A stretch of DNA of 64,000 bases from a virus (IMGVR_UViG_3300046170_000470), one strand, 5' to 3'; positions 5,173-32,181 are shown, counted from the stretch's first letter. Program-made: numbers and translations. Notes: generated by a model not told the origin, from the sequence alone.

Positions 5173-5433
5173 GTGTTAAATAAAGGTTATATGATGAGTC
5201 CAGAAGAAGTTTATTTTGCAGAACAAGAGTTCAATCGATTTGAAGAGATTATGAATACAAAAACATACCTTACAAAAGAGGAGTATGATTTTTGTTTTGC
5301 ATATGACAAAGATATTAGAGAAGATACTTCATATATTGGTAATTATAGTAAATTAGGTGATTACTTAAACCTAAGAGTTTATACTGAATACCTCCACCAT
5401 GAGCATGTTCAGAGAATGGAAAGTGGAATTTAA
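5173..5433 (+). CDS. Hypothetical early protein (likely start ATG ~5191)
   Basis: ORF after promoter; AAATAAAGGTTAT leader before the ATG. Confidence 0.6.
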   Translation: MLNKGYMMSPEEVYFAEQEFNRFEEIMNTKTYLTKEEYDFCFAYDKDIREDTSYIGNYSKLGDYLNLRVYTEYLHHEHVQRMESGI

Positions 5434-5451
5434 AAGTAATGCACGGGAAGC

Positions 5452-5480
5452 TTGGCTTCCCTGGCTAGAGTTTGTATATT
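5452..5480 (+). promoter_or_regulatory. Early/host-RNAP-type promoter TTGG-N17-TGTATATT
   Basis: Recurrent motif. Confidence 0.75.
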
Positions 5481-5511
5481 CACCACGTATTAATGATTAA
5501 AAATAAAGGTT

Positions 5512-5772
5512 ATGTCTATTTTAAGTAAAAAAATCAAAAGTTTAAACGACGGGGAAAGTTTTAATTTTAACTATAAGGATAAAAAATATGAATTTTGTTG
5601 TTATTCTTACTCAGATGAAAAAAAACATTATTCAGTTCGTGATGCAAGCAGCTTTTTAGGTGCAGGCATGAATGTTGAAAAAATTACCAAAAAGTATATT
5701 TCATTATATGACTATAACTTATTTAATGTTAGATCAACATATAAAATCCCAGTTAACAAAATAGAGATATAA
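5512..5772 (+). CDS. Hypothetical early protein
   Basis: 86-aa ORF with AAATAAAGGTT leader. Confidence 0.6.
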   Translation: MSILSKKIKSLNDGESFNFNYKDKKYEFCCYSYSDEKKHYSVRDASSFLGAGMNVEKITKKYISLYDYNLFNVRSTYKIPVNKIEI

Positions 5773-5775
5773 GTA

Positions 5776-6243
5776 ATGAAAAAAATAGTATATTTACACG
5801 GTTTAGAAAGTGAAGCAGGAGGTCCAAAAGTGTCTTTCCTTGCTGAAAAAGGTATGGTTTATGCTCCTGCTATGGATTATGAAACATTAGATTTAGATGA
5901 ATTCATTTATACTTTAGGTATGCCTGATTTAATTATAGGCTCTAGTATGGGTGGTTATATTGCTGATATGATTGGTTCTAAATTAGGGGTTGATGTTTTA
6001 TTGTTTAATCCTGCTTTACACAGTAGAAGTATTGAATTTGATTTTGATAATGGAATTGGTTATGGGGGTGAAAGTTATAAACGTACTATTGTTTTAGGTA
6101 CTGAAGATAATGTTATTAATCCTGAAATGACTAAAAAGTTATGGCCTTGTTATGATAATAGTGCAATATTCGATGAAGTAGAAGGTATGGGTCACAGAAC
6201 ACCACTTGATGTTTTTATCAATATGTATAATAAACATGCTTAA
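5776..6243 (+). CDS. Alpha/beta-hydrolase, YqiA-like esterase
   Basis: YLHG, GSSMGG nucleophile elbow, LLFNPAL, D and GH catalytic positions. Confidence 0.85.
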   Translation: MKKIVYLHGLESEAGGPKVSFLAEKGMVYAPAMDYETLDLDEFIYTLGMPDLIIGSSMGGYIADMIGSKLGVDVLLFNPALHSRSIEFDFDNGIGYGGESYKRTIVLGTEDNVINPEMTKKLWPCYDNSAIFDEVEGMGHRTPLDVFINMYNKHA

Positions 6244-6245
6244 TT

Positions 6246-6791
6246 ATGATCAAATTAGTAGATCTATTAAATGAAATAGATATCCCTAAGAACAAATGGG
6301 TTACTATCCCTGCTTCTGAGTTAAAGGATTATAGTGAAGAAATTTATAAATTAATTGATAACGCTTATGCTCAAATAGGTGGTCATCCTAATTATAAATC
6401 CGCGGATAATGTAACCGGTAGGGAAGCTGAAGCAGAATATGAAATAATTGATTTAGATGATGATCCCGAAATTGATGCAGTATCAGCTGCTAAACCAAAA
6501 GCAGCAGGTAAAAAGTTTACAGCAACGGGGCATGATGGTTCTAGTGCAGCTAAATCTAAAGTAGTAAACCATAAAGCTGATCAATTAAAATCCGGAGGAT
6601 ATTATGTTGAAGTATCAGGTAAAATAAAAGATATATTTAAAGCTAAAGGTGTAGAAGCTATTGATAATGAAGAATTAGTACGTAAAGTACTTAAAGGAAA
6701 AGAAATTGAGTGGTTAGGTAATGGAGAATATAAAAGAACAATTGGTGGTAAAGAATTTACCAAAGCATTAATGGGAAAACCAACAGTATGA
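6246..6791 (+). CDS. Putative internal head protein
   Basis: Late motif ATATGTATA at 6221; leader MIKLVDLLNE ends in L-x-E. Confidence 0.55.
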   Translation: MIKLVDLLNEIDIPKNKWVTIPASELKDYSEEIYKLIDNAYAQIGGHPNYKSADNVTGREAEAEYEIIDLDDDPEIDAVSAAKPKAAGKKFTATGHDGSSAAKSKVVNHKADQLKSGGYYVEVSGKIKDIFKAKGVEAIDNEELVRKVLKGKEIEWLGNGEYKRTIGGKEFTKALMGKPTV

Positions 6792-7585
6792 TAAGTTTAG
6801 TACAATTATTAAGAGAAGCACAAGGTGGCCCAAAAGCGATTATCCTAGCAGGAGCACCTGGAGCGGGTAAAGGATATATTTTACGTGGTTTAGACTTAGG
6901 AGGCCTAAAAGTAATGAATGTAGATGATATTTATGTTCCTTTACTAAAAAAAGCTAATGTTACATTAGATTTAAAAAATGCAACCCCCGAAGAAAGAAGT
7001 GAGCAAGCTAAACAAATGGCAGCCGCTAATAAACAATTCAAAGGTGAAATGGAACAAATAATAGCAGGTAAAGAATCGTTTATATTAGATGGTACCGCTG
7101 CATCATATAATTCCACAGCTAAGCTAAAAGCTGAGTTAGATGAAGCGGGGTATGATACATTTATGCTTTATGTTTATACAGATTTAGAACGTTCATTAAG
7201 CCAAAACCAAGACAGATACGTAAAATCAGGAGGTGAAGATAGAAGTTTAGCACCTGCAATTGTAATGCGTACTTGGAAAAGTGTAACAGATAATTTACCT
7301 AAATATGAAGAATTATTTGGTAATAATTTTGTAGCAGTAGCCAACACATTAGATGATAGAATGCAAGATATAGATAAAATTATAAAAAAATATCTTAAAC
7401 CATTTACTCCTCAAGGCACTAAACCAAAAACACCAGCTCAGCAAAAGAAATCTGATGAGCGAAAAGCTAAGGACAAAGAAGAAATTCAAGCTATGTTAGC
7501 TGACGATTTTATATATGATGTAATTGAATACACTATGTCTAAGGAAGAGGCACAAATGAGATTAAAACAATTTTTATCTAAATGA
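6788..7585 (+). CDS. Zeta-toxin/AAA_33-like P-loop kinase with putative capsid-targeting leader
   Basis: AIILAGAPGAGKG, MNVDD, FILDGTA, S-x-x-x-N-x-x-R; leader MISLVQLLRE. Confidence 0.75.
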   Translation: MISLVQLLREAQGGPKAIILAGAPGAGKGYILRGLDLGGLKVMNVDDIYVPLLKKANVTLDLKNATPEERSEQAKQMAAANKQFKGEMEQIIAGKESFILDGTAASYNSTAKLKAELDEAGYDTFMLYVYTDLERSLSQNQDRYVKSGGEDRSLAPAIVMRTWKSVTDNLPKYEELFGNNFVAVANTLDDRMQDIDKIIKKYLKPFTPQGTKPKTPAQQKKSDERKAKDKEEIQAMLADDFIYDVIEYTMSKEEAQMRLKQFLSK

Positions 7586-10119
7586 GTTTAGTAAACGAAT
7601 TAATAAAAGGGTTATTACCTGAAGAGGAAAAAAAACAAACTACAGCAGTATATGCTGGTGGTTTTAAACCACCTACTTCTGGTCATTTTGAAGTTGTACA
7701 ACAAGCACTTAAAAAAAACCCAGAAATAGACGAATTTATTATTTTTATAGGTAATAAAGAACGAAATGGTATTTCCCAATCCGAATCTTTATTAATATGG
7801 GAAATATATAATAATTATCTTCCATTTAAAGTTAAAATAGTTCCTACATCTGTACCACCAATTAAAGCCGTATATAATTTTGCTAAAGAACACCCCACTA
7901 GAGAAGTATTATGGGTTATAGGTGCTAGAGAAGGTAATGAAGAAGATTTTAAAGATATTACTTCACGTACTAAATCAATTTCAAAATATCCAAATTTGGA
8001 ACTTCGTACTATTGTAACAGCAGGTGGTGTATCAGGAACAGCTGCAAGGAATGCAGCCAAGGTATCACAAGAAAAGTTTGTAAAGTTCTTACCTGGGATG
8101 TTAAACCCAGAAGAAAGAACAGAAATATATAATATTGTAGCAGATAAAATACAAGAAGTGTTAACTAAAAATAATAAAACAGAAGACTATACTAAAAAAC
8201 AAAATATAAACGAAAATCTTCCAAAAGTTATTATATATAAAAATAATTTAGATATAACTTCAGAATATGATAGTTTAGTTGAGAATATACCCCCAACCCA
8301 ACTTCCTATAAGTAGTATATGTCTATTAGATTCCTATTTTTCTAAAAAAGAATATTTAAATGAAATCAGCAACAATAAGATTAAATCTTTAAAAATATCG
8401 GTATCAAACAAAAAACATATTCCCCCAATAGTAGTTAGGGAATATAAAAACAAATATCAAGTATTAGATGGAAACCATAGGTATATAAGTTATAAAGAAT
8501 TAAATAAAGAACATATTAATGCTATTGTACTACCTACAAATCAAGTAGCTGAAATAACTTCCCCCCAAGATTTAGATTTAATATTTGAAAAAATGTTTAA
8601 TAAATACCCGGATTTTAGGAAGTTTAATTATAACCCTTACATTGCTTCACTTACTAAACATATGTTGGATAATGGTATGAAATTAGAACCATTACCTCAA
8701 ATTCAGATGATCCATGACGATTATGAAAATGGAGAAGATTTATTTGGTAAAACAGCTTATTACAACCCAGGAAATAATTCAGTAGTACTTTTTACTTATG
8801 GTAGGCATCCTAAAGATATTTTACGATCTTATGCCCACGAATTAGTTCATGTTCATCAAAATATGGAAGATAGATTAACAGGTTTAGGTGCAAATACTGA
8901 TGTTAATCAAGATGACCATTTAGAACAAATCGAAAGAGAGGCGTACGAGACAGGAAATATAATGTTTAGAAGCTGGACTGATTCTATCACAGGAAATAAA
9001 TTAACCGAAGAATTATCAATTAATCCCAACCTTCCACCTATAGAAATGTTACAAAGTAAATTAAAAAGACTGAAAGGAAACTTTTTTGGATCTACTTTAA
9101 ATGAAGGCAAGAAAAAAGACCCATTTGGTTTAAATGAATCTTCCCAACCTACTTTTACAATGTATAGTGGTATAACAGGAGATGCATGGGAAAAAATTTG
9201 GAAAGATAAAAATTTTAAAGATAAAGTTACTAATATTACTAGTGATGAGGATTTTGCATTAGATTATTCATATAATTTTAAAACAGGAAAATATGAAGAT
9301 AAATATGTAAAAATTTCTAATATCCCTTTAGATGCATTTGTATCAGTTAGAGACAGAGATTATGAGGATGATGATGATTTTGAATCTATAGCAAATTTAG
9401 GTGATGAGGAAAAGATAAATGCAATAAAATATAATGATTTATTTTTAGTAAACTTATTTCCTTACAAATCTCAAATTAAAACTACATTAATTGATGATAG
9501 CTTAAATGAAAAGAAAAAACCATATAAACATAAATCTGGATTTAATCCCAAATTAGGTAAAGATCCATTTGGTTTAAATGCTTATGCTAGAGAATTAGCT
9601 ATGGGTTTAGAAGAACAAGAAAATCAATTTAAAGTTTATTTAGATATGGATGGTGTTATTGCTGATTTTGATCAACGTTTTAGAGATTTATCTGGAATGG
9701 AACCACGTGATTTTGAAAATAAATATGGTAAAAAAGCATTTTGGAATTTAATTGATGAAGAAAATAAAATTAAATTTTGGGTAGGAATACCTGAAATGCC
9801 TGGAGCTAAAGCTTTAGTTGATTATGTTAAAAAATATAATTTTGAATTGTTAACTTCCCCATCTGCTAAAAAACAATCATATTTAGGAAAAATATTATGG
9901 GTAAGAAATCATATAGGTTCCGTGTTTCCCTCAAAACCCCGTATTAACTTTAAGAAGGCAAAGGAGAAACACCTTGTTAAACCACAATTAACTAAAACCG
10001 ATATTCTAATAGATGATCGAGAAGACACAATTGAAAGATGGAATGCAGCAGGTGGTACAGGAATAGTATACAAAAATATAAGCCAAGTACTAAACGACTT
10101 GGGTAAATTAGGTTTATGA
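7582..10119 (+). CDS. Multidomain polyprotein: HxGH nucleotidyltransferase + ParB/Srx-like + HExxH metallopeptidase + possible ART-like + HAD 5'(3')-nucleotidase
   Basis: GGFKPPTSGH...SGTAAR; PPIVV...VLDGNHR; AHELVH...EREAY; MYSG...ITSDEDFALDY; YLDMDGVIADF...LIDD. Confidence 0.75.
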   Translation: MSLVNELIKGLLPEEEKKQTTAVYAGGFKPPTSGHFEVVQQALKKNPEIDEFIIFIGNKERNGISQSESLLIWEIYNNYLPFKVKIVPTSVPPIKAVYNFAKEHPTREVLWVIGAREGNEEDFKDITSRTKSISKYPNLELRTIVTAGGVSGTAARNAAKVSQEKFVKFLPGMLNPEERTEIYNIVADKIQEVLTKNNKTEDYTKKQNINENLPKVIIYKNNLDITSEYDSLVENIPPTQLPISSICLLDSYFSKKEYLNEISNNKIKSLKISVSNKKHIPPIVVREYKNKYQVLDGNHRYISYKELNKEHINAIVLPTNQVAEITSPQDLDLIFEKMFNKYPDFRKFNYNPYIASLTKHMLDNGMKLEPLPQIQMIHDDYENGEDLFGKTAYYNPGNNSVVLFTYGRHPKDILRSYAHELVHVHQNMEDRLTGLGANTDVNQDDHLEQIEREAYETGNIMFRSWTDSITGNKLTEELSINPNLPPIEMLQSKLKRLKGNFFGSTLNEGKKKDPFGLNESSQPTFTMYSGITGDAWEKIWKDKNFKDKVTNITSDEDFALDYSYNFKTGKYEDKYVKISNIPLDAFVSVRDRDYEDDDDFESIANLGDEEKINAIKYNDLFLVNLFPYKSQIKTTLIDDSLNEKKKPYKHKSGFNPKLGKDPFGLNAYARELAMGLEEQENQFKVYLDMDGVIADFDQRFRDLSGMEPRDFENKYGKKAFWNLIDEENKIKFWVGIPEMPGAKALVDYVKKYNFELLTSPSAKKQSYLGKILWVRNHIGSVFPSKPRINFKKAKEKHLVKPQLTKTDILIDDREDTIERWNAAGGTGIVYKNISQVLNDLGKLGL
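9115..9580 (+). repeat. 22-bp direct repeat pair (9115-9136, 9559-9580) encoding KDPFGLN
   Basis: aaagacccatttggtttaaatg vs aaagatccatttggtttaaatg, one mismatch. Confidence 0.9.
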
Positions 10120-10688
10120 AAGACAACGTTCTAAAAAAAGATTTTCAAGAAAGAGACGTACAAAGACTACGTAATTTAATTCAAGGTAAACAAGGAGAAA
10201 AAACACGTTCTAGTGTTGGTTTCTCTAAAGCAGATGAATTTTATGCTGAAGGTGATATCTGGGAATCAAATGGTCGTACTTGGACTATTAAAGATGGTAT
10301 CAAACAGAATATTACTAAATTAGATAAAGCTAAAAAGGCACACGTTATGCCTTTATTTTGCCCCAAGTGTAAAAAGGTAATGAAAAATCGTAATGATAAG
10401 CCTTTTTATAATTTACATAAGATGTGTTTTAATTGTGTTGTAGATTTTGAGCATGAATTAAAAAAGGAAGATAAATGGGAGGAATACCAACGTAGTATCA
10501 AAAACAACGAGATAGATAATCAAATAGCTGAGTTTAAACTTTGGATTAAAGAAAAACTTGAAGAAAGTAATGATGGTTTTATTTCAGAAGATGGTGATAT
10601 GGAAAAATGGGTAGGGAAAATAGATAAAGATAAAGTAGAACAATATGTTAAAGAAGTTGAAGAATATTTAACTTCACTTAAGCAATAA
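10116..10688 (+). CDS. Hypothetical protein with Zn ribbon
   Basis: CPKC...CFNC. Confidence 0.7.
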   Translation: MKDNVLKKDFQERDVQRLRNLIQGKQGEKTRSSVGFSKADEFYAEGDIWESNGRTWTIKDGIKQNITKLDKAKKAHVMPLFCPKCKKVMKNRNDKPFYNLHKMCFNCVVDFEHELKKEDKWEEYQRSIKNNEIDNQIAEFKLWIKEKLEESNDGFISEDGDMEKWVGKIDKDKVEQYVKEVEEYLTSLKQ

Positions 10689-10725
10689 CCTTACATATTT
10701 ATAACAATATAATAATATTATAATT

Positions 10726-11688
10726 ATGAAAGATAATTTTGACGTACACAGTTGGAATCAAAAACGTTATTTGGGTAAATTAAATGAAAATAAATCCCAT
10801 CTAGAATTTTTATCTAAGTATTTGGGTTCTATGTACCCAAATTTAAGATTTGATATTAGTGACCATACAGAAAGAATTGATGTAAGAGGATCCCAACAAG
10901 ATATGATGGATTGGGGTGACGAAAATCATGGAAAGAAATTTGGAGAATTTGAAGTATTCCATGTAGATGATGATGACAGAGGAGAAATTGTCCGTATCGT
11001 AAAATCAGATAGTATATTAAGAGAAAATGTAGAAGAAGGTATAGTTAAAGATATGCATACATTTTTAAATGATTTAAGAGATTCAGGAGTGACTAATATG
11101 TTTGGTGCTGCTCCTTATCTACAAAAAGAATTTGGTATAGATCAAAAATCGGCAAGAGAAGTATTAGCTAATTGGATGCAATCATTTAGTGAAAATTTGC
11201 AATATAAAGATAGGAAACTAAGCCACGAAGAAGAAGATAGATTAGACTTAATTGCACATCGTGAATTCGATGGTGTAAGCTTTAGTAAATTATCTGATGA
11301 GGATAAAGCAAAAGTATTTGCACAAAGAGATAAAGTAGGTGTTAAAGAATCTATAACAAAAAAAGAAGATGATGAATTTGCAGGATCAGACCCTAAAGCA
11401 GGTTCAACTATTCAAGGTACTGGGTTTAATTGGAAGCCAAAAGATTCAATTAAAGAAACAATTAAATTTATCAAAGAAAATAATCCTGAATTTACAACAG
11501 AAGAAATAGCTACTGAACTTAAAGAAATTAAAGAATTAGGTAGTCAATTAAACGAAAAACTTTGTAAAAAAGGCGAAGCATATCGTAAACGTAGAATGGC
11601 TGCAGGTGAAAAATCATCAGCTTATTTATCTGGTCGTGCTGTTAAAGTATGTAAAGGTCAAATGAGTGGTAAAAAAAAGAAAAAATAA
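10726..11688 (+). CDS. Putative modular internal head protein
   Basis: Late motif at 10695; segments delimited by LNE, LRE/VEE, VKE, IKE, LNE; basic Cys-containing C-terminal module. Confidence 0.6.
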   Translation: MKDNFDVHSWNQKRYLGKLNENKSHLEFLSKYLGSMYPNLRFDISDHTERIDVRGSQQDMMDWGDENHGKKFGEFEVFHVDDDDRGEIVRIVKSDSILRENVEEGIVKDMHTFLNDLRDSGVTNMFGAAPYLQKEFGIDQKSAREVLANWMQSFSENLQYKDRKLSHEEEDRLDLIAHREFDGVSFSKLSDEDKAKVFAQRDKVGVKESITKKEDDEFAGSDPKAGSTIQGTGFNWKPKDSIKETIKFIKENNPEFTTEEIATELKEIKELGSQLNEKLCKKGEAYRKRRMAAGEKSSAYLSGRAVKVCKGQMSGKKKKK

Positions 11689-12287
11689 TGGATACATTTG
11701 ATTTAAAAAAATATTTAGCCGAAGGTAGATTATATGAAGATGAAACAGCGGATTTAGATAAAGCTATGGCTAAGGGTTTATCTGCTCTAGAAATGGGAGA
11801 TTCATCTTTAGAAGATGAAGATTTATCTCAAGTAGTAAAAGAGGATAAGGAACAATTAAATGAATCTATTACTGGATTAGTAGTAGGTGGGATTTTAGCT
11901 GCTCCTAAACTTATACAATGGTTAGGAAAAAGTATTGGTGCTATAGGCAAATTACTTGGTAAAGATGAAAGTTCAATTGCTAAAGGAATTACAAAATTTG
12001 GTCCTAAATGGGAAAAACTTTATGTTAAAGCTATTGCTGCGGTTATAAAAGCAACAGGGTTTGCTAAATCCTTATGGATGAAAGATGGGAAACAAAATGA
12101 TAAAGATTTATATGCTGTTTCTAAAGTAGTATTTGGTGTAATATTAGCAGTAGCAGCAGGGAATGCTATATCTGCTGCTGTAAGTACTTCCTCTCCTATT
12201 ATAGCGGCATTAGAAAGTATATTTGGTGGAACTAAAGTAGCTGAAATAATTGGTATTGTACCTAAAGTAGCTAAAGCTGTAGCATAA
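11688..12287 (+). CDS. Putative internal protein with hydrophobic/amphipathic helices
   Basis: Leader MDTFDLKKYLAE, acidic linker to QLNE, then Ala/Gly/Ile-rich helices. Confidence 0.6.
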   Translation: MDTFDLKKYLAEGRLYEDETADLDKAMAKGLSALEMGDSSLEDEDLSQVVKEDKEQLNESITGLVVGGILAAPKLIQWLGKSIGAIGKLLGKDESSIAKGITKFGPKWEKLYVKAIAAVIKATGFAKSLWMKDGKQNDKDLYAVSKVVFGVILAVAAGNAISAAVSTSSPIIAALESIFGGTKVAEIIGIVPKVAKAVA

Positions 12288-12562
12288 TGACACAAGAACA
12301 ACTAACAGAAAGAATACAAGAATCACTACGTGATTGGTTTAAAAAAGAAGATTGGGTTAGAATCAATACTTCAGGTAATATTTCTGGTAAGTGTGGTACA
12401 ATGAAAAAAGGTAAAGCTACAACAAGGTGCTTGCCCAGAAAGAAAGCACAATCACTTACAAAAGCAGAGCGTAAAGCTACGGTTGCTAAAAAAGTTAGAG
12501 GAGATAAAAAGGGAAAGCAATTTGTGAAAAACACAAAAAAAGCAGAATTTAAAAAAAAATAA
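12287..12562 (+). CDS. Small basic protein (DUF5872-like)
   Basis: IQE then SLRDWFKKEDWVRI...CG...RCLP; K/R-rich. Confidence 0.55.
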   Translation: MTQEQLTERIQESLRDWFKKEDWVRINTSGNISGKCGTMKKGKATTRCLPRKKAQSLTKAERKATVAKKVRGDKKGKQFVKNTKKAEFKKK

Positions 12563-13318
12563 ATGAGGTTATTATGTTTACTATTTATACTACTTTTTAC
12601 AAGTTGTGGAATTGGATTTCAATACACAACATTAAATCATACGGGTCATATTGACGGCATTTACTCATCTAATGACTATAAAATAGATACATTAAATGAA
12701 TTTCAAGTTCGGAATAAATTAAGAACTGATTTTAATTTTAGATACGATTTTGCACAATATGCTTTATCCCAACCAGCTTCATTTGATTGGAATAATCGTT
12801 TACTAGGTAATAGATATAACTGGAACAGACCGTATTGGGGTTATAGTTACTATTGGGATAGAACACAAATGTGGAATGATTGGGTATGGGGTTATCCTTA
12901 TTCTAATTGGAGGTATAACAACTGGTATAGTTGGAATAGACCTTATTTAGGATGGAATAACTATAATTGGAATAATTGGGGTTGGAGAAATCAAATGAAT
13001 AATTATGCTTGGGTATACAGAAATAGACCTAATACTGTTCGTATAAATGGTTATAGAACTTCTAATAGAACATCTACTCGTACTATTATAAATAACTCAA
13101 ATAGGAGAACAACCCCTTCAGTTAATGTTAACAATAACAGAACTATTAGAGTAAATAAACCAAGAATTAATAATTCTAGACCTACAATTAATAATAACTC
13201 TAGACCAAGGGTTAATAATAATTCAAGACCATCTTCAACAATAAGAACAACCCCACGTACTTCTACTCGATCTAGCAATACTAGAACAGTAAGAAGTAAT
13301 TCTAGGAGAAAAAACTAA
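12563..13318 (+). CDS. Lipoprotein with W/Y/N-rich and R/N/S-rich low-complexity regions
   Basis: Hydrophobic signal with lipobox FTSC; WNN/WGY and NNSRP repeats. Confidence 0.75.
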   Translation: MRLLCLLFILLFTSCGIGFQYTTLNHTGHIDGIYSSNDYKIDTLNEFQVRNKLRTDFNFRYDFAQYALSQPASFDWNNRLLGNRYNWNRPYWGYSYYWDRTQMWNDWVWGYPYSNWRYNNWYSWNRPYLGWNNYNWNNWGWRNQMNNYAWVYRNRPNTVRINGYRTSNRTSTRTIINNSNRRTTPSVNVNNNRTIRVNKPRINNSRPTINNNSRPRVNNNSRPSSTIRTTPRTSTRSSNTRTVRSNSRRKN

Positions 13319-13343
13319 TATTTATAAATAAAAATATACTATA

Positions 13344-13820
13344 ATGAGCGATTTTAATTATCAAGCGTATTTAAAAAATAATCCCTTACTTCAAGAAGAA
13401 GTTAAAGAGGAAAAATTACTTACTGAATCTCAAGAAATTGATGAAACAGTAGAAGAAACTGTTGAGGAAGTAGCCGAAGAAACCACTGAAGAAATTCAGG
13501 AAGAAGTTCCTTCATCTAAAATTAAAGTATCTGAACTCAAAGCTAAAATTAAAGAAAATATTATTTCTTTACTTCAAGAAGAAGAAGATGAAGTAGATAT
13601 TGAAGATGAAATTGAAGCAGATGATGTTGAAGTAGATATTGAAGAACCAACAGTAGATACAACTTCCCCTGAAGTTGGCCTTTCATCTGATGAACAAGAA
13701 ATCCAAGATAGTTTAAAACTAGCCTACGATAATGCAGTTGCTATTGGAGACGAAAAACTAGCCGATCAAATCGGTAACTCAATTACATTCTTTACTAGAA
13801 CTCACGTTGTAGAAAGATAA
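13344..13820 (+). CDS. Acidic putative head/core protein
   Basis: Late motif at 13318; many [ILV]-x-E sites (LQE, LTE, IDE, VEE). Confidence 0.6.
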
Positions 13821-13821
13821 G

Positions 13822-16140
13822 ATGTTAAACGAACGTAAACTCACCGAAAATGAGATAGAGCAAAGGAAAATCGCTCTCAAAGGTTTGTTGAAAAACAAAC
13901 GTGCTCTAGTTAAAAAATACGGTGCGGATGCGGAAAAAGTTATGTACGGAATAGCCACTAAACAGGCAAAGAAAAAAGTTGAAAATATGAACTTGGACAA
14001 ACTCAAAGAAATGATCCAGGATGCCCTTACTGTTAAGGAAGCATCCCCTTTTGTATTAGCAGCAGACGCAGCTAAAGATGCAGGTAAAAAAGAATTCGAA
14101 TTTCCTGAAGGAAGTGGAAAAATGCACCCTGTTACAATTAAACAGGATATTAAAGAAGATAAATTTTCTAACGCTGCAATGAATGATATAATGCAAAGTG
14201 TCAGAAATCTTGCTCATACTACAGGTATGGATGAATTAGAAGCTGCAGAAATAGCAATTAACGAAATTAAAATTGAATTTGGTGTTGATGCTTTCCATGA
14301 ATCAGTAAATGAAGATCTAGATGTAGGACATCAAGATGACGAACCTCAAATGCTAAAATCAGATTTATATAGAATAGCTAAATATGCAGCTGAACTATAT
14401 AAAATGATGGACAAATATGATCAAGGTGGAGAAGTAGATTTTCCACATTGGTGGCAAGCTAAAGTTATCAAAGCAAGAGATTATATGGTAGCTGCTAAAC
14501 ACTATTTAGATGGTGAAGAAAAAGTAGACCAAATCGATGCTATGTTAGGTGTTAATGAAATAGATAATAGTGAATATGCTATGAAGCTTAGAGCACTTAA
14601 ATCACAACCTGAACCATCTAGAGGTGGAATTGATTACGATGAAGCTTTAACCTTAAGAGGTATGAAAGCTGAAATCGAAGCTGAAATTGCCCAATTATTC
14701 AGAGATATGGAGCAAGAAGCTGAACCAGAAGGTGGGCCAATTGCAGATAGATATGGTGATAAGTTAAATAAATTAGAAGATCGTTTATATAAAATCAACA
14801 AACAACTTCGTGATTATGATATGAACGAAGAAATGGCAGTATTTTCCTCAAAAGAAGATGAAGATAAGTACATTGAAAAAATGGTAGCTAAAACTCTTGA
14901 AAAAGAAAAAGAAAAAAAGAAAAAAGGAATAAACGAAGAAATGGATGATGGCCCATTATTTAAATATTTTAAAGCACAAGGATACGATGTAAAGGGACGT
15001 AGTGCTGACGGTAGTAAACCTGGATTTAAAGGATACCAAGTAAGTAGAGGTAACGATAGATATCCTCAATCGGTAATATTCCAATATAATAAAGATACTA
15101 ACAAATTTACTATCAGCAGAATGAGCGGTTATAGAATTGATCAAGATGAGGCAATTAAAGCTGGAATGAGAGAAAAAGGCCGTTCAGGAGCAGTTGGTAT
15201 GGATTCTTGGATGACAGATGGGAACTGGACACCAGTAAATATAGATGCTGAAGACTTAAAAGATATTGTTGATCATGTAATGACTGGTATAGAAAGAGAA
15301 TCTAAAGCACAAACAGACTTTTATGCTAAAAGAGGACCAACATCAGGTACTATAGATGAAGATACAGTTAAGGAACTTTATGATAAAGACTTTAACTATG
15401 ATAGTATAAGCATGGATAACGTAAAAGGTATGGATCTCAAACCCGGAAAATATCAAATGATATTTAAACATAAAAATGGCAACCTTGACCAAAGAAACTA
15501 CCCTGATTTAAGATCTTTTACAGCAGGTGCTACTCAATTTTTTGAATACGAACATTTTTTGAAAAAATTTGGAATTGAAGATAAAGTACGCTCGGGTGAG
15601 ATTAAGCTTAACCAACATGAAGATGAATTTGTAGACAAATATTTTGATGAAATCATTGATTTAATTAATAATTCTTCTAACGTTATTCTTTTAGTAAACG
15701 GTAAACCAGTAGCAGGTGGAACTATAAATGAAGAAAAAGGTCAATCGTTTTTTGATATGACAAGAGCTGAATTAATAGATTTCCTCAATACTACTGAAGA
15801 CAAAGTAGAAGACATGTCTTATAAAGAATTAAGAGATGCTGCTATTGAAAAAAATTATGATCTTAAAGAAGAAAAAATCGAAGTAGACGCTGATACTAAA
15901 TTTGAATTACCTTTAAAACATCTTATCCAAAAACACGTTAAAGAAGTAATGGATAGTAGAAAGAAAAAAGGATTCAAAGCAGGTGATAAAGTAACATACT
16001 TAGGACACCCAGGTGAAATTACTAAAGTTAACAAAGAAGTTACCGGTGATATTTCTTACAATGTATCATATGATAAAGGTAATGGTAAAACTAAGGCATC
16101 AAACATCTATAATAAAGGTGGTGAAATAAAAGCAGTATAA
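13822..16140 (+). CDS. Putative modular polyprotein (internal head protein)
   Basis: About 10 short segments bounded by VKE, IKE, VNE, VNE, MNE, INE, IDE, INE, LKE, VKE; C-terminal SH3/KOW-like 'FKAGDKVTY'. Confidence 0.6.
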
Positions 16141-16141
16141 C

Positions 16142-16576
16142 ATGACGGCATCAGAACTTAAAGAAAAAGTAAAAAGACTTGCTAAAAAAGTTTATCAAGA
16201 AAAAACTAAAGGAGATGATGCTGCTGTAGCATATGATGAATTAGTTAAATTCCCTGAACTTAAGGCAGTTATTATAGATTTACTTACAGCGGATTTTGAT
16301 AGTTTTTTAGAATCTGTTGATTGGGTATCACCTCGTCCATCTGCTTTTCGTGTAAATTTGTTGAATGGGCAAAATTTTATGCTTACATTCGATCCTAGAA
16401 GTTGGATAGCACAAGTAGAAGGTAAAAAATATTATTTACTTAACTTAGACGAAGAAGAAATGGCTGCTAAAGCTGTTTCTCGTATATTAGCTTACGGTCC
16501 TGCAAGTGGGGCAGCTGTTGAAGGTGATAATGATACTGTAGAGACAGAAGAAGAAATAGAAGTTGATGAAGAATAA
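16142..16576 (+). CDS. Hypothetical protein (putative head)
   Basis: Leader MTASELKE; acidic tail. Confidence 0.6.
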   Translation: MTASELKEKVKRLAKKVYQEKTKGDDAAVAYDELVKFPELKAVIIDLLTADFDSFLESVDWVSPRPSAFRVNLLNGQNFMLTFDPRSWIAQVEGKKYYLLNLDEEEMAAKAVSRILAYGPASGAAVEGDNDTVETEEEIEVDEE

Positions 16577-17647
16577 ATGGATATACTCGATAAAATATTA
16601 AAAGAACATAGTTGGAAGTTTCCTAAAGGATATCCTGACATGAATAGCAAAGAAGACAAAAATCTTCTTCAATCTATAGTTAATGGGTACCTAACAGAAG
16701 CAGAAGAAGAAATTGAACTTTCAGATGATAGAGAAGTCTTAAATGTTAAAGACGCAGAAGTTAAAGACCCATCTGGTGGCTCTCAGTCTTATAACGATAC
16801 TATTAGATTTGCTTTATATGGTAAAGATTGGCAAGGAAAACCAATACCAAGACCTAAGAAAAAATACCCATATCAACAAAATACATTTACAATTAATGTT
16901 GATTCATTAGATCAACAAATGTTTGATAAACTTTACCCAGTAAAACCACCTAAAGTAGGAAAAGAAATAGGTAGTGCCGGTTCTCTAGGAGTAGGAAATG
17001 GTGAAATCGCCTTATATTGGCTATACCAATTTTCAGAAAGTGCTAAAGTAGATGAAGGTAGGGAAAGCGATGATCCTGATTTATTTTTTAATGGTCAAGG
17101 AGTTGAGGTTAAATCTTGGGGTAAGCATGAAGGAATGCATGGTTTAGGTAGATTTGGTGCTGACAAAGAAAATTTATCATTACTTTCTATTATATTTGGG
17201 TTTAATGCTCTAGCAACAGTATTTGGTGAAGGGGAAAAAGTTCCTAAAACTATAAACCCAACAAATTTTAAAGGATCTGATTTAGTTACTGCTATGGAAA
17301 AAGTTAGTGAATTTAAAAGTATTATAGATGCAAACGAAACTTTAGCTACAAGTTATCCTTTATTTAAAAGTATTAAAGAAAATACTGATAGAGTTTATAG
17401 ACAATTAAAATTAACAGGAAGTGATTCTCCTGAAGAAATGGCTACAAAAATGGCTATTAAATTACTTGAACCAAAATTAAGTAGAAAACCCGGAGAGGGT
17501 AATCATTTAGCTAATGTAAAAGATGATGGAAATATTAAATTTTTCCAAATTCAATTTGCTAAGTTAAAAGATAGTGAAGATTTGTTAGACGATTTTGTTG
17601 TTAAACAAAGTGCAATAGGAATTAATTTTAATAAAATTTGGGGATAA
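16577..17647 (+). CDS. Putative head protein with PD-(D/E)xK nuclease-like domain
   Basis: GNGEIAL...DPDLFFNGQGVEVKS; leader ends YLTE. Confidence 0.5.
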   Translation: MDILDKILKEHSWKFPKGYPDMNSKEDKNLLQSIVNGYLTEAEEEIELSDDREVLNVKDAEVKDPSGGSQSYNDTIRFALYGKDWQGKPIPRPKKKYPYQQNTFTINVDSLDQQMFDKLYPVKPPKVGKEIGSAGSLGVGNGEIALYWLYQFSESAKVDEGRESDDPDLFFNGQGVEVKSWGKHEGMHGLGRFGADKENLSLLSIIFGFNALATVFGEGEKVPKTINPTNFKGSDLVTAMEKVSEFKSIIDANETLATSYPLFKSIKENTDRVYRQLKLTGSDSPEEMATKMAIKLLEPKLSRKPGEGNHLANVKDDGNIKFFQIQFAKLKDSEDLLDDFVVKQSAIGINFNKIWG

Positions 17648-17648
17648 T

Positions 17649-18449
17649 ATGTGTAACTGCGGATGTAATACTTGTGAAACAAAAGGACCTTTATTAACGG
17701 AAGGTAAAGTTAAGTCTTTATTATCTGAAGGTCTACAATATCATATAGATAAAAAAATACCATTATTTGAAACAGTATATCGTATTGGTTCAGATAAACA
17801 TTTAGCTTTAATTAAAGAAGCTAGAAAAATGTATTCACGTAATGTAATTGATTTATGTGAAGATGATGAAGCATTAATTAAAACACATTTAGGTGAATTT
17901 GCTTTATATGAAGGTGAATCTGTACCTTTAGATTTACCCATGTTAGAACAAACTTATAGTGGTTTTAGAAGAGGAGAACCAGAAGACCCAGATTCTATTC
18001 CATTTAAACCAACAGGATCAGTATCTGAATTTAGAGAAGATTTAAGAGCATTATTTGGTAAATTTAAAGGTGATTTAAAAAATCCTGAATTTATAAAAGG
18101 AGTAGCTCAAGTAATGGTTAATTGGAAATCACTTTTAAGAAGCCAATTAGACGAAGCTAAAAAGAAAAAAGAAAAAAAAGACCCACCATTAAATAAACCA
18201 AAACGTGGTGGTTCAAAAGCATATTACGTTTATGTACGTGACCCTAAAACTAAAAAAATTAAAAAAGTATCATTTGGATCAGGTGGTTTAAGAGCTAAAA
18301 TTAAAAATAAAGAAGCTCGTAATGCATTTGCTGCTAGACATAACTGTAAAAATAAAAAAGATAGAACTAAAGCAGGATATTGGTCATGTAATTTACCAAG
18401 ATACGCCCCAGCTTTAGGATTAGGTGCTAAAATGAATACTTTCTGGTAA
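17649..18449 (+). CDS. Modular protein with basic C-terminal domain
   Basis: CNCGCNTC N-terminus; LTE, LSE and LDE sites; KKVSFG...AFAARHNC...AGYWSC module. Confidence 0.6.
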   Translation: MCNCGCNTCETKGPLLTEGKVKSLLSEGLQYHIDKKIPLFETVYRIGSDKHLALIKEARKMYSRNVIDLCEDDEALIKTHLGEFALYEGESVPLDLPMLEQTYSGFRRGEPEDPDSIPFKPTGSVSEFREDLRALFGKFKGDLKNPEFIKGVAQVMVNWKSLLRSQLDEAKKKKEKKDPPLNKPKRGGSKAYYVYVRDPKTKKIKKVSFGSGGLRAKIKNKEARNAFAARHNCKNKKDRTKAGYWSCNLPRYAPALGLGAKMNTFW

Positions 18450-22307: not shown

Positions 22308-23885
22308 ATGTCTGATTTAAAAAAGGTAATACGTCAAGAATATCTAAAATGTGCCAAAGACCCCGTACATTTTATGCGTAAATACTGTTATATACAGCAC
22401 CCACAAAGGGGGCGTATACCATTTAATTTATATCCATTCCAAGAAAAAGTACTCAAGCTATTTAGAGACAATGATTATTCTGCTGTATTAAAATCTAGAC
22501 AATTAGGTATATCTACATTAGCCGCAGGTTATTCTTTATGGTTAATGACATTTCATAAAGACCGAAATGTATTAGCATTAGCAACAACTCAAGCAACAGC
22601 AAGAAACTTAGTAACAAAAGTACAATTCATGTGGGAAAATTTACCTTCATGGCTTAAAGTAGATTCAGCTGAAAATAACAAATTATCTTTAAGATTAACT
22701 AATGGTTCAAAAATACAAGCAAAATCTTCAAATGCCGATGCCGCAAGATCGGAAGCAGTATCATTGCTAATAGTTGATGAAGCCGCCCTTTATTGATAAT
22801 ATTGCTGAGACATGGGCTTCTGCCCAACAAACACTTGCAACTGGTGGGGGTGCCATTGTACTATCAACCCCTTATGGTACTGGTAACTGGTTTCACCAAA
22901 CATGGGTTAAAGCAGAACAAGGAGAAAATGAATTTTTACCTATTAAATTACCATGGTATGTACACCCAGAAAGGGACCAATCATGGAGAGATGCACAGGA
23001 CTCATTATTAGGAGATCCTAGATTAGACAGCCCAAGAATGTGACTGTGACTTTAGTACCTCTGGTGATATTGTATTTTATAATGAGTATTTAGAATATTA
23101 CGAAAAATCTTTTATAAAAGAACCTTTAGAAAGAAGGGGTGCTGATCAAAATTTATGGGTTTGGGAATCCCCCGATTATAGCAGAAACTATATTGTAGTA
23201 GCTGATGTATCCAGAGGAGATGGAAAAGATTACTCAGCATGTCCATGTAATTGATACTGAAAGTAATGTGCAAGTTGCTGAATATAAAGGGCAAATTAAT
23301 ACAAAAGATTATGGTCATTTATTAGTAGGATTAGCTACTGAATATAATGAAGCAATGTTAGTAATAGAAAATGCCAACATTGGTTGGGCAACTATACAAG
23401 TTGCTATAGATAGACAATATCCTAACCTCTACTATTCACAACGGAGTGACTCCCCAAATGCTGATTCGTATTTTGACAAATATCAAGACCACTCTAAAAT
23501 GGTAGCTGGTTTTACAATGTCCTCTAGAACAAGACCTATGGTAATAGGTAAGTTTCAAGAATATATTAGTGATAAAGGAGTAACAATACAATCTAGAAGA
23601 TTAATAGAAGAAATGAAAGTGTTTATTTGGAAAAATGGTAGAGCAGAAGCCCAAACAGGATATAATGATGATCTAGTTATGTCATTTGGGATTGCAATGT
23701 ACATTAGAGATACAGCACTAAAATTAAGACAACGTGGTTTAGATGCAACCCGAAATGCATTAAATAACATAACAGTAAATAGAACACAATATCAAGGTGG
23801 GTATTTTTCAACAGGAGCTGATAACCCTTACCATATTGAAACCCAAAATGGTAATAAAGAAGATATTAGTTGGCTCTTTAAATAA
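22308..23885 (+). CDS. terL: Terminase large subunit (T4 gp17-like); three +1 indels (~22788, ~23027, ~23244)
   Basis: LYPFQ, KSRQLGIST, LIVDEAA-F, LSTPYG, QECDC, ADVSRGDGKDYS, IENANIG, NDDLVMS. Confidence 0.92.
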
Positions 23886-27717: not shown

Positions 27718-28593
27718 AAAAAGCAGATCAATTATTTAAGGAATTAATCAATGAAAATTATATTGACCTTAAACCTATTAATAAAATAGAAGCTACACCT
27801 AAAACAAATTTTGAAAATAAATTTGCTGAATTTTTAGCTGAAGAAGCTAAAGTTGAAGAAAAAAAGGTAACTAAAGAAGTTGAAGAAGTAGCTGAAAGTA
27901 ATTTTGATTATAAAGATGTTAAAAATTTAGATAACCAAATTGGTCAAGAAGTATTAAATGGTATTTACTTTGAAGCAAAACAAAACCCAGATAAATCATT
28001 AGAAGAAATTAGAGAAATAGTATCTAAAAACTTAGCTAAGGATGGACAACATTATATGAATAATGCTATGTTTGGTATCGATGGTTTAAAGGCTGAAACA
28101 ATGAAATGTGAAGAAGTTTCAGGTAAACATGCTGCTAGTGGGATATTCTGATAAAGTTAAAGAAGTAGTAAAAGAATCTTTAATGGGTGGAACAACAAAC
28201 ATTGTTAAAGAAGAAGAAGAAGAAAAAGAAGCCCCAAAACCTAAAAAAGCTAAAAAAGTTAAAAAAGAATCAATTGACACTAAGCTAGCTGAAATTGGTA
28301 AAGAAGCAGAAGCTGTAAAATTAGAAGCTCAATTAGACTTTTTACATGATCATATTGCTGAAAAATTAGAAAGAGTTAATTCAATTAATGAAGATGAAAA
28401 TCTTAAAGAATTAATTGATAAAGCTAAAATGAAGCAAATGCAAAAAGAAATTAAAGAGCTAGAAAAGAAAAAAGCCAAAATGGAAAAAATCTATGAAAAA
28501 TCTTGTGGTAGAAAATACCAAAAAGAAGAAATTGTAGATGAAATGGAAGTTAACGGAGTTGAAGTAGAAGAAGTATCTTTGGACCATGAATAG
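27714..28593 (+). CDS. Putative prohead core protein; +1 indel near 28141
   Basis: ORFs 27714 and 28108 join (...AASGYSDKVKE...); charged, many x-x-E sites; immediately upstream of the protease. Confidence 0.6.
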
Positions 28594-29191
28594 ATCTCTA
28601 TTAATAGAAACTCATACTTTTAAGGCAAACCCAATTCAATTAACAGAGAATGTTAATTCAGAAAATGGGAATATGCTTGTAGAAGGTGTTTTAGCTACTG
28701 CCGAAGTAAAAAACGGCAATGGTAGATATTATTCTAAAGAATTATGGGAACGTGAAATGGATAAATATTCCCAACTTGTAAAAGAAAGACGTTCAATAGG
28801 TGAATTAGACCACCCAGAATCATCAGTTATAAATTTACAAAACGTATCACATATTATTTCAGAATATTGGTGGGATGGAGATAATGTAATGGGTAAAATA
28901 GAAATTTTACCTACTCCTTCAGGAAATATACTTAAAGAAATTATTAAAGCAGGTGTAACAGTAGGTGTTTCATCTCGTGGTATGGGATCGTTAGAGCAAA
29001 ACGGTAATGTAATGGAAGTACAAGATGACTTTGAATTATTATGTTGGGATTTTGTTTCAACACCTTCTAACCCAGGCTCTTATATGCATACCTTAAATGA
29101 AAGTAAAGGAGCCATTACTTATGACTATACTAATATAAACAATATCGTACGAGAAATTCTTTGTTCTAAAGGTTCTTGTCCCGTTTGTTAA
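28586..29191 (+). CDS. Prohead core maturation protease (T4 gp21-like)
   Basis: NGNGRYY, GELDHP, VSH, GVSSRGMGS, DFVSTPS. Confidence 0.95.
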   Translation: MNRSLLIETHTFKANPIQLTENVNSENGNMLVEGVLATAEVKNGNGRYYSKELWEREMDKYSQLVKERRSIGELDHPESSVINLQNVSHIISEYWWDGDNVMGKIEILPTPSGNILKEIIKAGVTVGVSSRGMGSLEQNGNVMEVQDDFELLCWDFVSTPSNPGSYMHTLNESKGAITYDYTNINNIVREILCSKGSCPVC

Positions 29192-29367: not shown

Positions 29368-30561
29368 ATGTCAAACAACAGAGATTTGCTCAAAGAAGCA
29401 ATTGCTGATGCTAAAGCGGTAAAAGAAACTGCCATAGCAAACGCTAAAGCTGCTTTAGAAGAAGCATTTACTCCTCATTTGAAATCTATGTTAGCCGCTA
29501 AATTGGAAGGAATGGACAAAGACGAAGACATCGACGAAGGATACGATAAGTATGAAGAAGATGACGTTAAAGAAGAAGTTTCTGACTGAATTAGATGAAG
29601 CTAAAAAGAAGACAAAGAAGAAGTAAAGGAAGCTGAAGAAGTAGAAGAAGCTAAAAAAGAAGAGGTTGATGAAGAAATCAATCTTGACGAATTACTTGCA
29701 GAACTTAATGAAGACGAAAAGGTAACTGAATCTGAAGAAATCGAAGAAGCTAAAGAAGAAATCGACGAAGCTAAGGAAGAAATTGACGAAGCTAAAGAAG
29801 AAATCGACGAAGCAAAAGATGACAAAGAAGAAGTTAAAGAATCAGAAGAAATTGAAGAATCTGAAGAAATTGAAGAATCAGAAGAAGTAACTGAAGCCGA
29901 AGAGGACGAAGCCGAAGAAGGTGAAGCCGAAGAAGGTGAAGGTGAAATGGAAGAGGAAGAAATTGATTTAGAAGATATGTCTGAAGATGACCTTAAAGGC
30001 TTTATTGAGGATGTAATTAAGGACATGGTACAAGCTGGTGAATTAGAAGCTGGAGAAGAAATGGAAATGGATGGCGAAGAGTCAGAAATGGATATGGATA
30101 TCGAAGTTGAAGATGAAGCAGAAATGCCAATGATGGAAGAAAAAAAGGAAGAAGTAGAAGAAGCTAAAAAAGAAGACAAAGAAAAAGTAGATGAAAGTGA
30201 AGAACTTACAACTGCATTATCTGAAGTTGAGGAACTTAAAAAGGAACTTAACGAAGTTAACTTACTAAACGCTAAATTACTTTATACTAATAAAATCTTC
30301 AAATCAAAGAATTTGTCTGAAGACAAAAAAGTTAAAGTGTTGAAAGCTTTTGATAAAGCTGAAACCGTAAAAGAAGCTAAAGTTATTTTTGAAACATTAA
30401 ACGAAGGTATCTCATCTAAAATGACAAAACCATCAATTAATGAAGTAAAAGGTAGTGCTTCAAAAGCTGCAGGAATAGCTCCTAAAGCAAAACAGCCAAT
30501 CGTTGAAAATGCTGCATTTGCACGTATGCAACGTTTAGCTGGAATTATTAAAGAAAATTAA
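29368..30561 (+). CDS. Prohead scaffold/core protein (T4 gp22-like); compensating +1/-1 indels at ~29584-29608
   Basis: LLKEAIADAKAVKETAIANAKAALEE...LNEVNLLNAKLLY...RMQRLAGI; very acidic; lies between protease and MCP. Confidence 0.85.
29734..29892 (+). repeat. Coding tandem repeats: 4 x 21 bp (EEI[D/E]EAK) and ~3 x 18 bp (ESEEIE)
   Basis: gaagaaatcgacgaagctaaa units at 29734-29817; gaatcagaagaaattgaa units from 29839. Confidence 0.85.
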
Positions 30562-30587: not shown

Positions 30588-32181
30588 ATGAGTTTACAAA
30601 CTTTATTAGAAAGTGCAAACCCATATCATTCAGTACAGAGTGATGCTGCTCGCTTAGCGACAAAATGGGAAAAAACAGGTTTGTTAGAAGGTTTAAAAGG
30701 TAGTACCAAAAATAACATGGGTATTATCCTTGAAAACCAAGCTAAACAACTTGTAGTAGAAAGCTCTCAAACAGGTGGAGGTGTCGGAAATGGCGGTACT
30801 TTCAGTGTTGGACAAGGTGAGCAATGGGCTGGTGTAGCTCTTCCGTTAGTACGTAAAGTATTCGGACAGATGGCCGCTCAAGAATTTGTATCAGTACAAC
30901 CAATGAACCTACCTTCAGGTTTAGTATTTTTCTTAGATTTCCAATATGGAGAGACTAAAGGAGGATTTGGCGAAGGTAAATCATTATATGGTGATACATC
31001 ATCATTTGCTTCTAACGACACTTCAGGTGGTCTTTATGGCGCTGGTCGTTTCGGATATTCAATCAACAACACATCTTCTGCTGTAACAGCTGTTACTTCA
31101 TCTGCAGGATGGCATGACTTAGGATATGATTCAGATTATTCAGCTTCTGCTGCTGCTGGAGACTACGTAAAAGTAGCTGTAGCTAAATCTGATCTTCCTG
31201 CTTTAGACGAAGCTGGTATAAGAGGATTCTCTTTAGATGTTGATTCATTACCTGCATTTGCAAAAGCAGATGGAAGTGATGTAGTATTTATTGTTGAAGC
31301 TGCTAATGCTTCTGTAGATAATAGCTATACTGTTGATTACCAACTACAACCACGTGATAACGCAAGAGGTGATTTCGAAGATGGAAACAACTCATTAAAT
31401 GGAGAAAATACCCCAATTTCTATCCCAGAAATTAACGTACAGATGAAATCATCTGCTATCGTAGCTAAAACACGTAAGTTAAAAGCTGTATGGACTCCTG
31501 AGTTCGCACAAGACTTGAACGCTTACCATTCTCTAGACGCTGAAGCTGAATTGACTTCTATCTTAAGTGAATACATTTCATTAGAAATCGATCTTGAGAT
31601 CTTAGATATGTTAATGGAAGGTGCTTCTGCTGGTACTGAAGTATGGTCTGCTGTAAACAACAGACGTTTAGTATCTGAAGATAACTTTGCTTCTGACCTA
31701 GGATTCTTTAACAGCCAAGGACAGTGGGTTCCAAACTTTAGGAACTAAAGTACAAAAGTTAAGCAACGTAATCCACCAAAGAACATTACGTGGTGGTGCT
31801 AACTTTATGGTAATTTCTCCAAAAGTATCTACAATCTTAGAAGCTATCCCAGGATTTGCTGCTGACGTAGATGGTGATGTAGAAAAAGCATCTTATGCCA
31901 TTCGGTGTACAGAAGATCGGAGCAATGGGGTGGTGGAAAAGTTAAGGTATACAAAAACCCTTACATGACTGAAAACCAAATCTTATTAGGATTTAGAGGG
32001 TACTCAGTTCTTAGAAAGTGGTGCTGTATTTGCTCCTTATATTCCATTAATCATGACTCCTCTAGTATACGATCCAGACACTTTCACACCAAGAAAAGGT
32101 CTATTAACTCGTTACGCTAAGAAAATGGTTCGTCCAGAATTCTACGGAACAATCAAAATTGAAGGATTAGATACTCTATAG
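30588..32181 (+). CDS. Major capsid protein (T4 gp23-like); three +1 indels (~31726, ~31899, ~31998)
   Basis: KWEKTGLLEG, ENQ, VQPMNLPSGLVF, AKTRKLKAVWTPEFAQDL; shifted frames give APYIPL and TRY; ends TAG 32179-32181. Confidence 0.95.

Follow-up and report, generated by a model that had tools for sequence, protein, structure and literature searches.

A modular polyvalent phage protein with L/I-x-E junctions as a candidate capsid-cargo precursor

The window analysed here, 64,000 nucleotides (nt) of DNA from the virus IMGVR_UViG_3300046170_000470, is a phage genome segment (31% G+C, with nearly all genes on the + strand) and contains at positions 7582-10119 of that strand a single uninterrupted open reading frame (ORF) for a protein of 845 amino acids (aa). 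Five separate modules are joined in this protein: a HIGH-type nucleotidyltransferase (module A), a ParB/Srx domain (B), an HExxH zincin (C), a domain of ADP-ribosyltransferase (ART) fold (D) and an NT5C nucleotidase (E). From its sequence features and by analogy with phage T4 we consider it somewhat probable that the protein is a cargo precursor that is loaded into the capsid, cut by the phage's own head protease and injected into the host; the support for cutting by the head protease is good but circumstantial. The gene would encode a modular 'polyvalent' cargo precursor made of a 14-residue leader and five autonomous domains, with short unstructured linkers that each end in [L/I/V]-x-E. The leader would target the precursor to the prohead core, like the T4 capsid-targeting sequence, the prohead protease would cleave after the Glu of the exposed junction motifs to give separate proteins of ~14-20 kDa, and four motifs inside domain cores would stay protected from cleavage. 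Having left the capsid along with the DNA, the pieces would act at an early stage on the nucleotide/NAD-related metabolism or the defences of the host, and new modules may enter through recombination in the linker-coding DNA.

Results

Cleavage-type motifs are concentrated at the domain junctions

An original prediction, made by a model from the window's sequence alone, had read the gene as a chain of unrelated enzyme domains with a candidate cleavage site at each domain boundary. All motifs that it had listed were present in the 845-aa ORF at the positions given (T-S-G-H, DGNHR, HELVH, MYSG...ITSDEDFALDY, DMDGV and eight x-x-E sites), and the unrelated domains were borne out by Pfam and PHROG profiles, by predicted folds and by the autonomy of the modules, each of which is also found on its own or in different arrangements. 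The motif-bearing ends are KIQE (residue 192), NINE (211), LIFE (336), KLTE (476), TLNE (508), GLNE (519), SLNE (643) and GLEE (678). The protein contains 15 [LI]xE motifs where 10.9 are expected from its composition, and 11 of the 15 fall among the 206 residues (24%) that belong to no domain core (binomial P 9e-5); a linker shuffle gave 4.1 ± 1.7 motifs against the 11 observed (P 3e-4), and none of six control motifs showed linker enrichment in the same protein. Structures were modelled with AlphaFold2 (AF2) and searched with Foldseek and VIA-align, and domain profiles were taken from Pfam and PHROG. In the models the junction sites had predicted local distance difference test (pLDDT) values below 50 and were found at the edges of confidently folded domains with values above 90, not buried within them, and sites 192, 476, 643 and 678 coincided with drops in pLDDT at domain ends. 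The motifs inside cores (51, 74, 726 and 738) are located in helices or strands and are less conserved.

Conservation was scored on an alignment of full-length homologues (A2); one built from module fragments (A1) was badly misaligned and was dropped. In 64 diverse homologues the Glu of site 192 was found in 56 of 56 sequences and I, V or L occupied P3 in 53 of 56, while P2 and P1' were variable, which argues for present-day selection on the motif and against a relic. At site 678, P3 was L, I or V in 58 of 64 sequences and the Glu was present in 47 of 64. Of the homology breakpoints in the fetched family, 57% and 52% had an [LI]xE motif within 10 residues, compared with 22% of random positions (2.4-2.6-fold), LNE was 5-fold enriched, and the control motifs [LI]xD/K/Q/N, [LI]E and [LI]..E gave ratios of 0.65-1.25, all counts referring to unique sequence contexts that are not phylogenetically independent.

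Modules are gained and lost at the junctions

The family is large (3,463 matches among near-length proteins; 5,354 cluster representatives; 156-1,547 aa), with a smallest form of 515 aa that consists of A + C + E. In the set of homologues that was fetched, 21 combinations of the modules of this protein alone were found, and two hot spots take alternative modules, namely DUF5661, GNAT, a Zn-ribbon, Tox-ART-HYD1, ART-PolyVal, superoxide dismutase and Zeta kinase. The comparison of homologues suggested with the original prediction showed that modules come and go exactly at [LI]xE sites and that the architecture is not invariant. BLAST coverage along the 845-aa query was step-like with sharp breakpoints; 76 alignments ended exactly at E192 and 55 at N518, and alignment starts clustered at 336-354, 637-639 and 657-661. 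In Flavobacterium phage immuto the nucleotidase has its own gene further downstream, module D also exists as a free protein of 117-141 aa with or without a leader ending in LxE, and in P0275 a Zeta kinase is fused before module A, with the leader of module A kept as an internal linker.

Two further relatives were observed. P0170, the family member of 1,547 aa, carries within its chain a Zeta kinase together with a complete Fe/Mn superoxide dismutase (matches to Sod_Fe_N and Sod_Fe_C, E 1e-18 to 1e-28). P0291 (301 aa), from another phage, combines a relative of the small ORF 12287-12562 of the window (leader ..IQE, then SLRDWFKKEDWVR..) with a basic module and module D, and modules are therefore swapped between different cargo genes, not only inside the 845-aa family.

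A conserved peptide of the form K-DPFGLNAYAR-EL-x-GLEE precedes the nucleotidase, and 197 of 270 relatives have one copy of it. In the present protein two copies flank module D, and the peptide is likewise duplicated whenever a module has been inserted beside it (also in P0276), and at the DNA level the duplication is a direct repeat (9115-9136 and 9559-9580, 21 of 22 nt identical, 444 nt apart) that looks like the footprint of an insertion of module D by linker recombination. The role of this tag is not accounted for by the LxE code; it could be a second signal, for example for docking or release.

A gp21-type protease and portable leaders

The protease encoded in the window matched Pfam Peptidase_S77 (E 7.9e-30) and a PHROG profile for head maturation protease (E 1.4e-58). 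It aligns with T4 gp21 over 176 aa at 32% identity (E 3e-22), and an N-terminal LLIE site is common to both. T4 gp21 cleaves after L/I-x-E (PMC9026906). In the major capsid protein (MCP) of the window, the position aligned to the T4 cleavage site (..LTE↓A) reads LVVE↓SS, and short leaders ending in LxE were found on the small ORFs between portal and MCP, on the protease and on the MCP. An [LI]xE motif ending at residue 6-22 was present in 11 of 13 ORFs of the block 6246-18449 and in 8 of 11 ORFs of the head-core block, compared with 6 of the remaining 56 ORFs (P by Fisher's test 4e-7 and 6e-5, respectively), the borders of the gene blocks having been set after inspection of the data. The stretch ahead of strand 1 in module A was bimodal in length across 243 family members (at most 10, or 16-25 residues), and the long form almost always carried [LIV]xE 5-7 residues before strand 1. 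A leader of the type M-N-G-L-S-K-F-L-V-D-S-I-L-x-E is found in front of free module D as well as of module A, and the leader is therefore a portable unit.

The block 6246-18449 spans 12 kb and includes the gene for the 845-aa protein. Its leaders are of types such as ..LVDLLNE, ..LVQLLRE and ..ILKE, and most of its ORFs fall outside known families; probably they encode additional cargo for the capsid. One of the two leaderless ORFs of the block (12563-13318), located near its middle, begins with a lipoprotein-type signal, with a hydrophobic stretch followed by Ser-Cys-Gly.

Fold and conservation of the modules

Module A was modelled with pLDDT above 90 over residues 20-190, and its T-S-G-H (32-35) and S-G-T-A-A-R (151-156) motifs are nearly invariant. 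Foldseek matched it to phosphopantetheine adenylyltransferases (PPAT; TM-score by target 0.73-0.81) and to NadD/NMNAT (~0.6), and a weak Pfam match to CTP_transf_like was found. On motifs and modelled fold it is classed broadly as a HIGH-type nucleotidyltransferase and not as an NMNAT. Module B scored above the Pfam cut-off for ParB_N (E 1.4e-6, 28.7 bits against 26.3) and had ParB-like PHROG matches. Among the fetched homologues it was found only in P0005 and P0006, and its AF2 model was poor because the alignment was shallow. The zincin module C is present in ~260 of 270 homologues, was modelled with pLDDT above 90 over residues 345-470, and has H419, E420, H423, E451 and E453 invariant (in sets of 29 and 64 homologues). 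No Pfam family, MPTase-PolyVal included, matched it at E values up to 1, and a zincin profile returned only chance-level DARPin and syntaxin matches from the sequences of the PDB; one language-model lead pointed to Peptidase_M78/IrrE-like proteins. The mini-module that follows (residues 477-508) also occurs in P0006 and is absent from P0289, P0023 and P0046.

AF2 modelled the ParB and ART-fold modules with low confidence when given the whole protein, and the ART-fold module was then refolded alone, with 32 homologous sequences (pLDDT 87.2, predicted TM-score 0.79). VIA-align gave the catalytic domain of diphtheria toxin at Z 7.0, and members of the ART superfamily (PARPs, Tpt1, DarT, Arr) made up most of the 50 rows listed; the Z values are middling, and the weight therefore rests on the uniformity of the list of structural matches. 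Foldseek returned ART folds with probabilities of 0.9-0.99, and an independent Atlas look-up also pointed to this fold. The canonical catalytic residues (H-Y-E, R-S-E or H-Y-D) were found in none of the 32 aligned sequences: strand 1 reads Y/F/L-S/T-G in 32 of 32, with Ser/Thr in place of the canonical His/Arg, and the invariant residues are T/N/T, Y-S-Y, an R and two Asp. We therefore claim the ART fold for module D as modelled, and not ADP-ribosyltransferase activity. The ART call had been rated weak in the original prediction, and it has gained support at the level of the fold, with the absence of His/Arg remaining on the other side.

Module E matched PHROG 2643 (E 1.7e-24), while its Pfam NT5C score (19.8) stayed below the cut-off of 24.8. 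It was modelled with pLDDT above 90, D688, D690, S761, K770 and D811-D812 are nearly invariant, and Foldseek matched it to the human and mouse deoxyribonucleotidases (mdN and cdN). The NAD-centred role proposed for the protein is speculation, with PPAT fitting module A better than NMNAT and with module D lacking His/Arg.

Phage, gene neighbourhood and expression signals

The phage context of the 845-aa protein is evident from the portal, S77 protease, gp23-type MCP and tail sheath genes (Table 1), and the window also encodes a tape-measure-like protein. The closest cultured phage is Flavobacterium phage immuto; the MCPs are 50% identical, and the source phage is therefore, as judged from sequence, a distant relative of T4, probably of marine Bacteroidota. 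Megablast of the region against cultured phages gave zero matches, an Rfam scan of the window found no RNA families, and the literature search found no report of a virion proteome of phage immuto. The sequence aTATTTATAA was found 13-29 nt before the start codons of 13 genes for structural proteins or cargo, among them portal, sheath, tube and tape-measure genes as well as several cargo ORFs, and is probably a late promoter of this phage. A different signal, TTG...TATATT, precedes metabolic genes (589, 5173, 5512, 20289, 51316 and 53106).

Table 1. Positions of the parts of the 845-aa protein and of other features in the window
Feature	Position	Strand	Remarks
aTATTTATAA copies	189, 2879, 10696, 13319, 21092, 23886, 25823, 33095, 33122, 38200, 40518, 42499, 44914		
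DNA primase	3408		
Exonuclease	4375		
Zeta-toxin-like P-loop kinase, leader ending LLRE	6788-7585	+	Pfam Zeta_toxin E 7.5e-16; upstream, overlaps the 845-aa ORF by 4 nt
N-terminal leader, residues 1-14, amphipathic helix ending L-P-E	7582-7623	+	AF2: helix 2-11, then coil
Module A, residues 15-192, HIGH-superfamily nucleotidyltransferase, ends KIQE	7624-8157	+	
Spacer, residues 193-211, ends NINE	8158-8214	+	pLDDT <50; homologues diverge here
Module B, residues 212-336, ParB/Srx domain with DGNHR, ends LIFE	8215-8589	+	
Module C, residues 337-476, HExxH zincin (HELVH), ends KLTE	8590-9009	+	
Mini-module, residues 477-508, bounded by LTE and LNE	9010-9105	+	AF2: single helix 487-499, low pLDDT
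First K-DPFGLN tag copy, truncated, residues 509-519, ends GLNE	9106-9138	+	
Module D, residues 520-643, minimal ART-fold domain, ends SLNE	9139-9510	+	
Second K-DPFGLN tag copy, full, residues 644-678 (KDPFGLNAYAR-EL-GLEE)	9511-9615	+	Helix 665-679, low pLDDT
Module E, residues 679-845, NT5C-type HAD 5'(3')-deoxyribonucleotidase (DMDGV), plus stop codon	9616-10119	+	
Portal	23910		
T4 gp21-type prohead protease, candidate processing enzyme	28586-29191	+	Peptidase_S77, PHROG
gp23-type major capsid protein with propeptide	30588-31748	+	Pfam Gp23 E 2e-36
Tail sheath	38237		

The gene for the large terminase subunit (22308-23885) is split over three frames (22308-22796, 22774-23043 and 23205-23885). 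The text runs on across the first frame change (..VDEAAL / ..IDNIAETW..) and no Rfam intron was found; the breaks are possibly assembly indels, a programmed shift or signs of a decaying gene. The broken terminase raised the question of whether the 845-aa ORF is itself an assembly artefact, which was rejected: the identical protein is recorded from three contigs, and the fused layout is common to many homologues. The 357 nt (29590-29946) that separate ORF 29368-29589 from the acidic scaffold-like ORF (29947-30561) carry coding-like GAAGCCGAAGAAGGTGAA-type repeats, and the scaffold gene there may extend further or be frame-broken like the terminase gene.

Discussion

The original prediction had taken the 845-aa protein for a viral-style polyprotein cut by the head protease, and what stands of this is that the phage encodes a gp21-type protease and that the junctions agree with the L/I-x-E specificity of this enzyme (PMC9026906). 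Several observations weigh on the other side. The gene directly follows the replication genes (primase and exonuclease) in a tight operon, the nearest signals upstream of this operon look host-type (TTG...TATATT), and an exact aTATTTATAA was not found upstream of the operon (5173-10688), for which the sole candidate is a 7/8 match at 6222, 16 nt before ORF 6246. The leader and the junction code are not strictly coupled, 32 leaderless family members having kept LxE junctions, and the invariant HExxH domain, found in nearly every member, is an alternative enzyme that could do the cutting. Motifs 234 and 261 are not classable, both falling in the N-terminal portion of the ParB module, which is poorly modelled; the shared ancestry behind the family motif counts and the choice of block borders in the leader test, both given above, point the same way.

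The absence of the exact late motif upstream of the operon would also suit a polyvalent protein of several domains that stays uncleaved, whether packaged or not, and acts as a single chain; its [LIV]xE motifs would be relics of the leaders of fused genes or preferred ends of linker helices. Gene fusion and fission at the junctions are documented (the Zeta kinase forms part of the chain in P0275 but has its own gene here, and the nucleotidase is separate in immuto), and N4 vRNAP, ArdC and TraC1 are delivered unprocessed (PMC5512222). We nevertheless regard such a chain as unlikely, with Glu 192 invariant in 56 diverse sequences in which its neighbours vary, with a single terminal motif shared by modules of unrelated origin, and with no enrichment of the control motifs. 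Cutting of the precursor by its own zincin, whether in cis or in trans and whether ahead of packaging or once injected, follows a published theme: Iyer et al. proposed processing by the metallopeptidase domains of polyvalent proteins (PMC5512222). The HExxH motif and the downstream Glu are invariant, the module occurs in ~260 of 270 relatives, and leaderless members still have junction motifs. Zincin self-processing is quite improbable to us all the same, for the motif is present in proteins that lack a zincin (stand-alone ART-fold proteins, head-core proteins, the MCP, the protease and neighbouring cargo ORFs), it is the documented specificity of the gp21 family, and module C matched neither the metallopeptidase family of polyvalent proteins nor any other in Pfam and PDB searches.

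The position of the gene among primase, exonuclease and thymidylate-kinase-type neighbours, with host-type promoter-like signals upstream, would be expected of a cytoplasmic early or middle multi-enzyme of nucleotide metabolism that is never packaged and serves, for example, to remodel the deoxynucleoside monophosphate pool in a phage with modified DNA; NT5C and nucleotidyltransferases are indeed common among phage metabolic genes. This alternative, to which we give little credence, leaves the junction code without a role, and it has to contend with a portable leader that is common to head-core proteins and other cargo and with the ParB, zincin, ART-fold and Zeta kinase domains, which are hallmarks of delivered polyvalent proteins (PMC5512222).

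By the definition of a polyvalent protein (at least two disparate activities in one phage polypeptide, with mosaic architectures) the 845-aa protein is one, and the resemblance noted in the original prediction is sound. It shares with the proteins described by Iyer, Burroughs, Anand, de Souza and Aravind in 2017 (PMC5512222) the unrelated enzyme domains in one phage polypeptide, the ParB/Srx, zincin and ART-fold domains with an adjoining or fused Zeta kinase, the extreme mosaicism among relatives and a predicted delivery with the DNA. The processing motif in the junctions sets it apart: that paper proposes that built-in metallopeptidases or assemblin-like domains do the processing, and a term search of it did not find the word linker, whereas here every junction has an [L/I/V]-x-E motif that fits a gp21-type protease encoded by a gene of its own. 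The same term search found neither the core of HIGH-type transferase, zincin and NT5C nor the K-DPFGLNAYAR tag, and 'nucleotidase' came up once, in connection with ParB domains.

The 845-aa protein also has the features of capsid-targeted cargo of the T4 type. The T4 internal proteins IPI-III and Alt (PMC9026906, PMC3012670) likewise have a short leader ending in L/I-x-E and a homologous S77 protease, the head genes follow the same order (portal, small core proteins, protease, scaffold, MCP), and diverse cargo, including an ART-fold protein in the case of Alt, stands under a conserved leader. The T4 cargo proteins are, however, single-function proteins that lose terminal propeptides only, whereas up to five enzyme domains plus mini-modules and internal cuts are predicted here, and the present leader is longer, a predicted amphipathic helix of ~14 aa. 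In the giant phages phiKZ, 201phi2-1 and SPN3US (PMC9026906; PMC7411985, PMC10052503), gp21-related proteases cleave many head-internal proteins after the Glu of a three-residue motif, with several cuts in one protein being frequent; there the motif is S/A-x-E, and the substrates are mostly structural or unknown proteins with discarded propeptides and not swappable enzyme chains. The new element would be the combination, in which conserved junctions of protease type inside the chain would make a true polyprotein of a polyvalent protein, and no published account of protease-coded phage cargo polyproteins was found in the searchable literature, subscription journals being largely outside the search.

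If the junctions are cut, a single gene would supply a set of separate enzymes to the host at the time of infection, and linker recombination could re-equip this set. This would account for the working of polyvalent proteins whose activities are incompatible, and the modules of the 845-aa family that have no known function would be candidate anti-defence or takeover effectors. We suggest tentatively, and with less than full conviction, that oceanic distant relatives of T4 may use a general 'address-and-cut' grammar, in which a portable leader and a three-residue motif read by the prohead protease allow any small enzyme to be spliced, through recombination in linkers, into a small number of carrier genes, loaded as a polyprotein and released as a separate effector. 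Cut junctions would also supply a sequence rule for predicting, across thousands of marine phages that are uncultured, which proteins are virion cargo and where their mature forms end, the leader together with LxE linkers would provide a design for packaging several foreign proteins in T4-type capsids, and the grammar, if true, would amount to a polyprotein strategy for virion cargo in bacteriophages.

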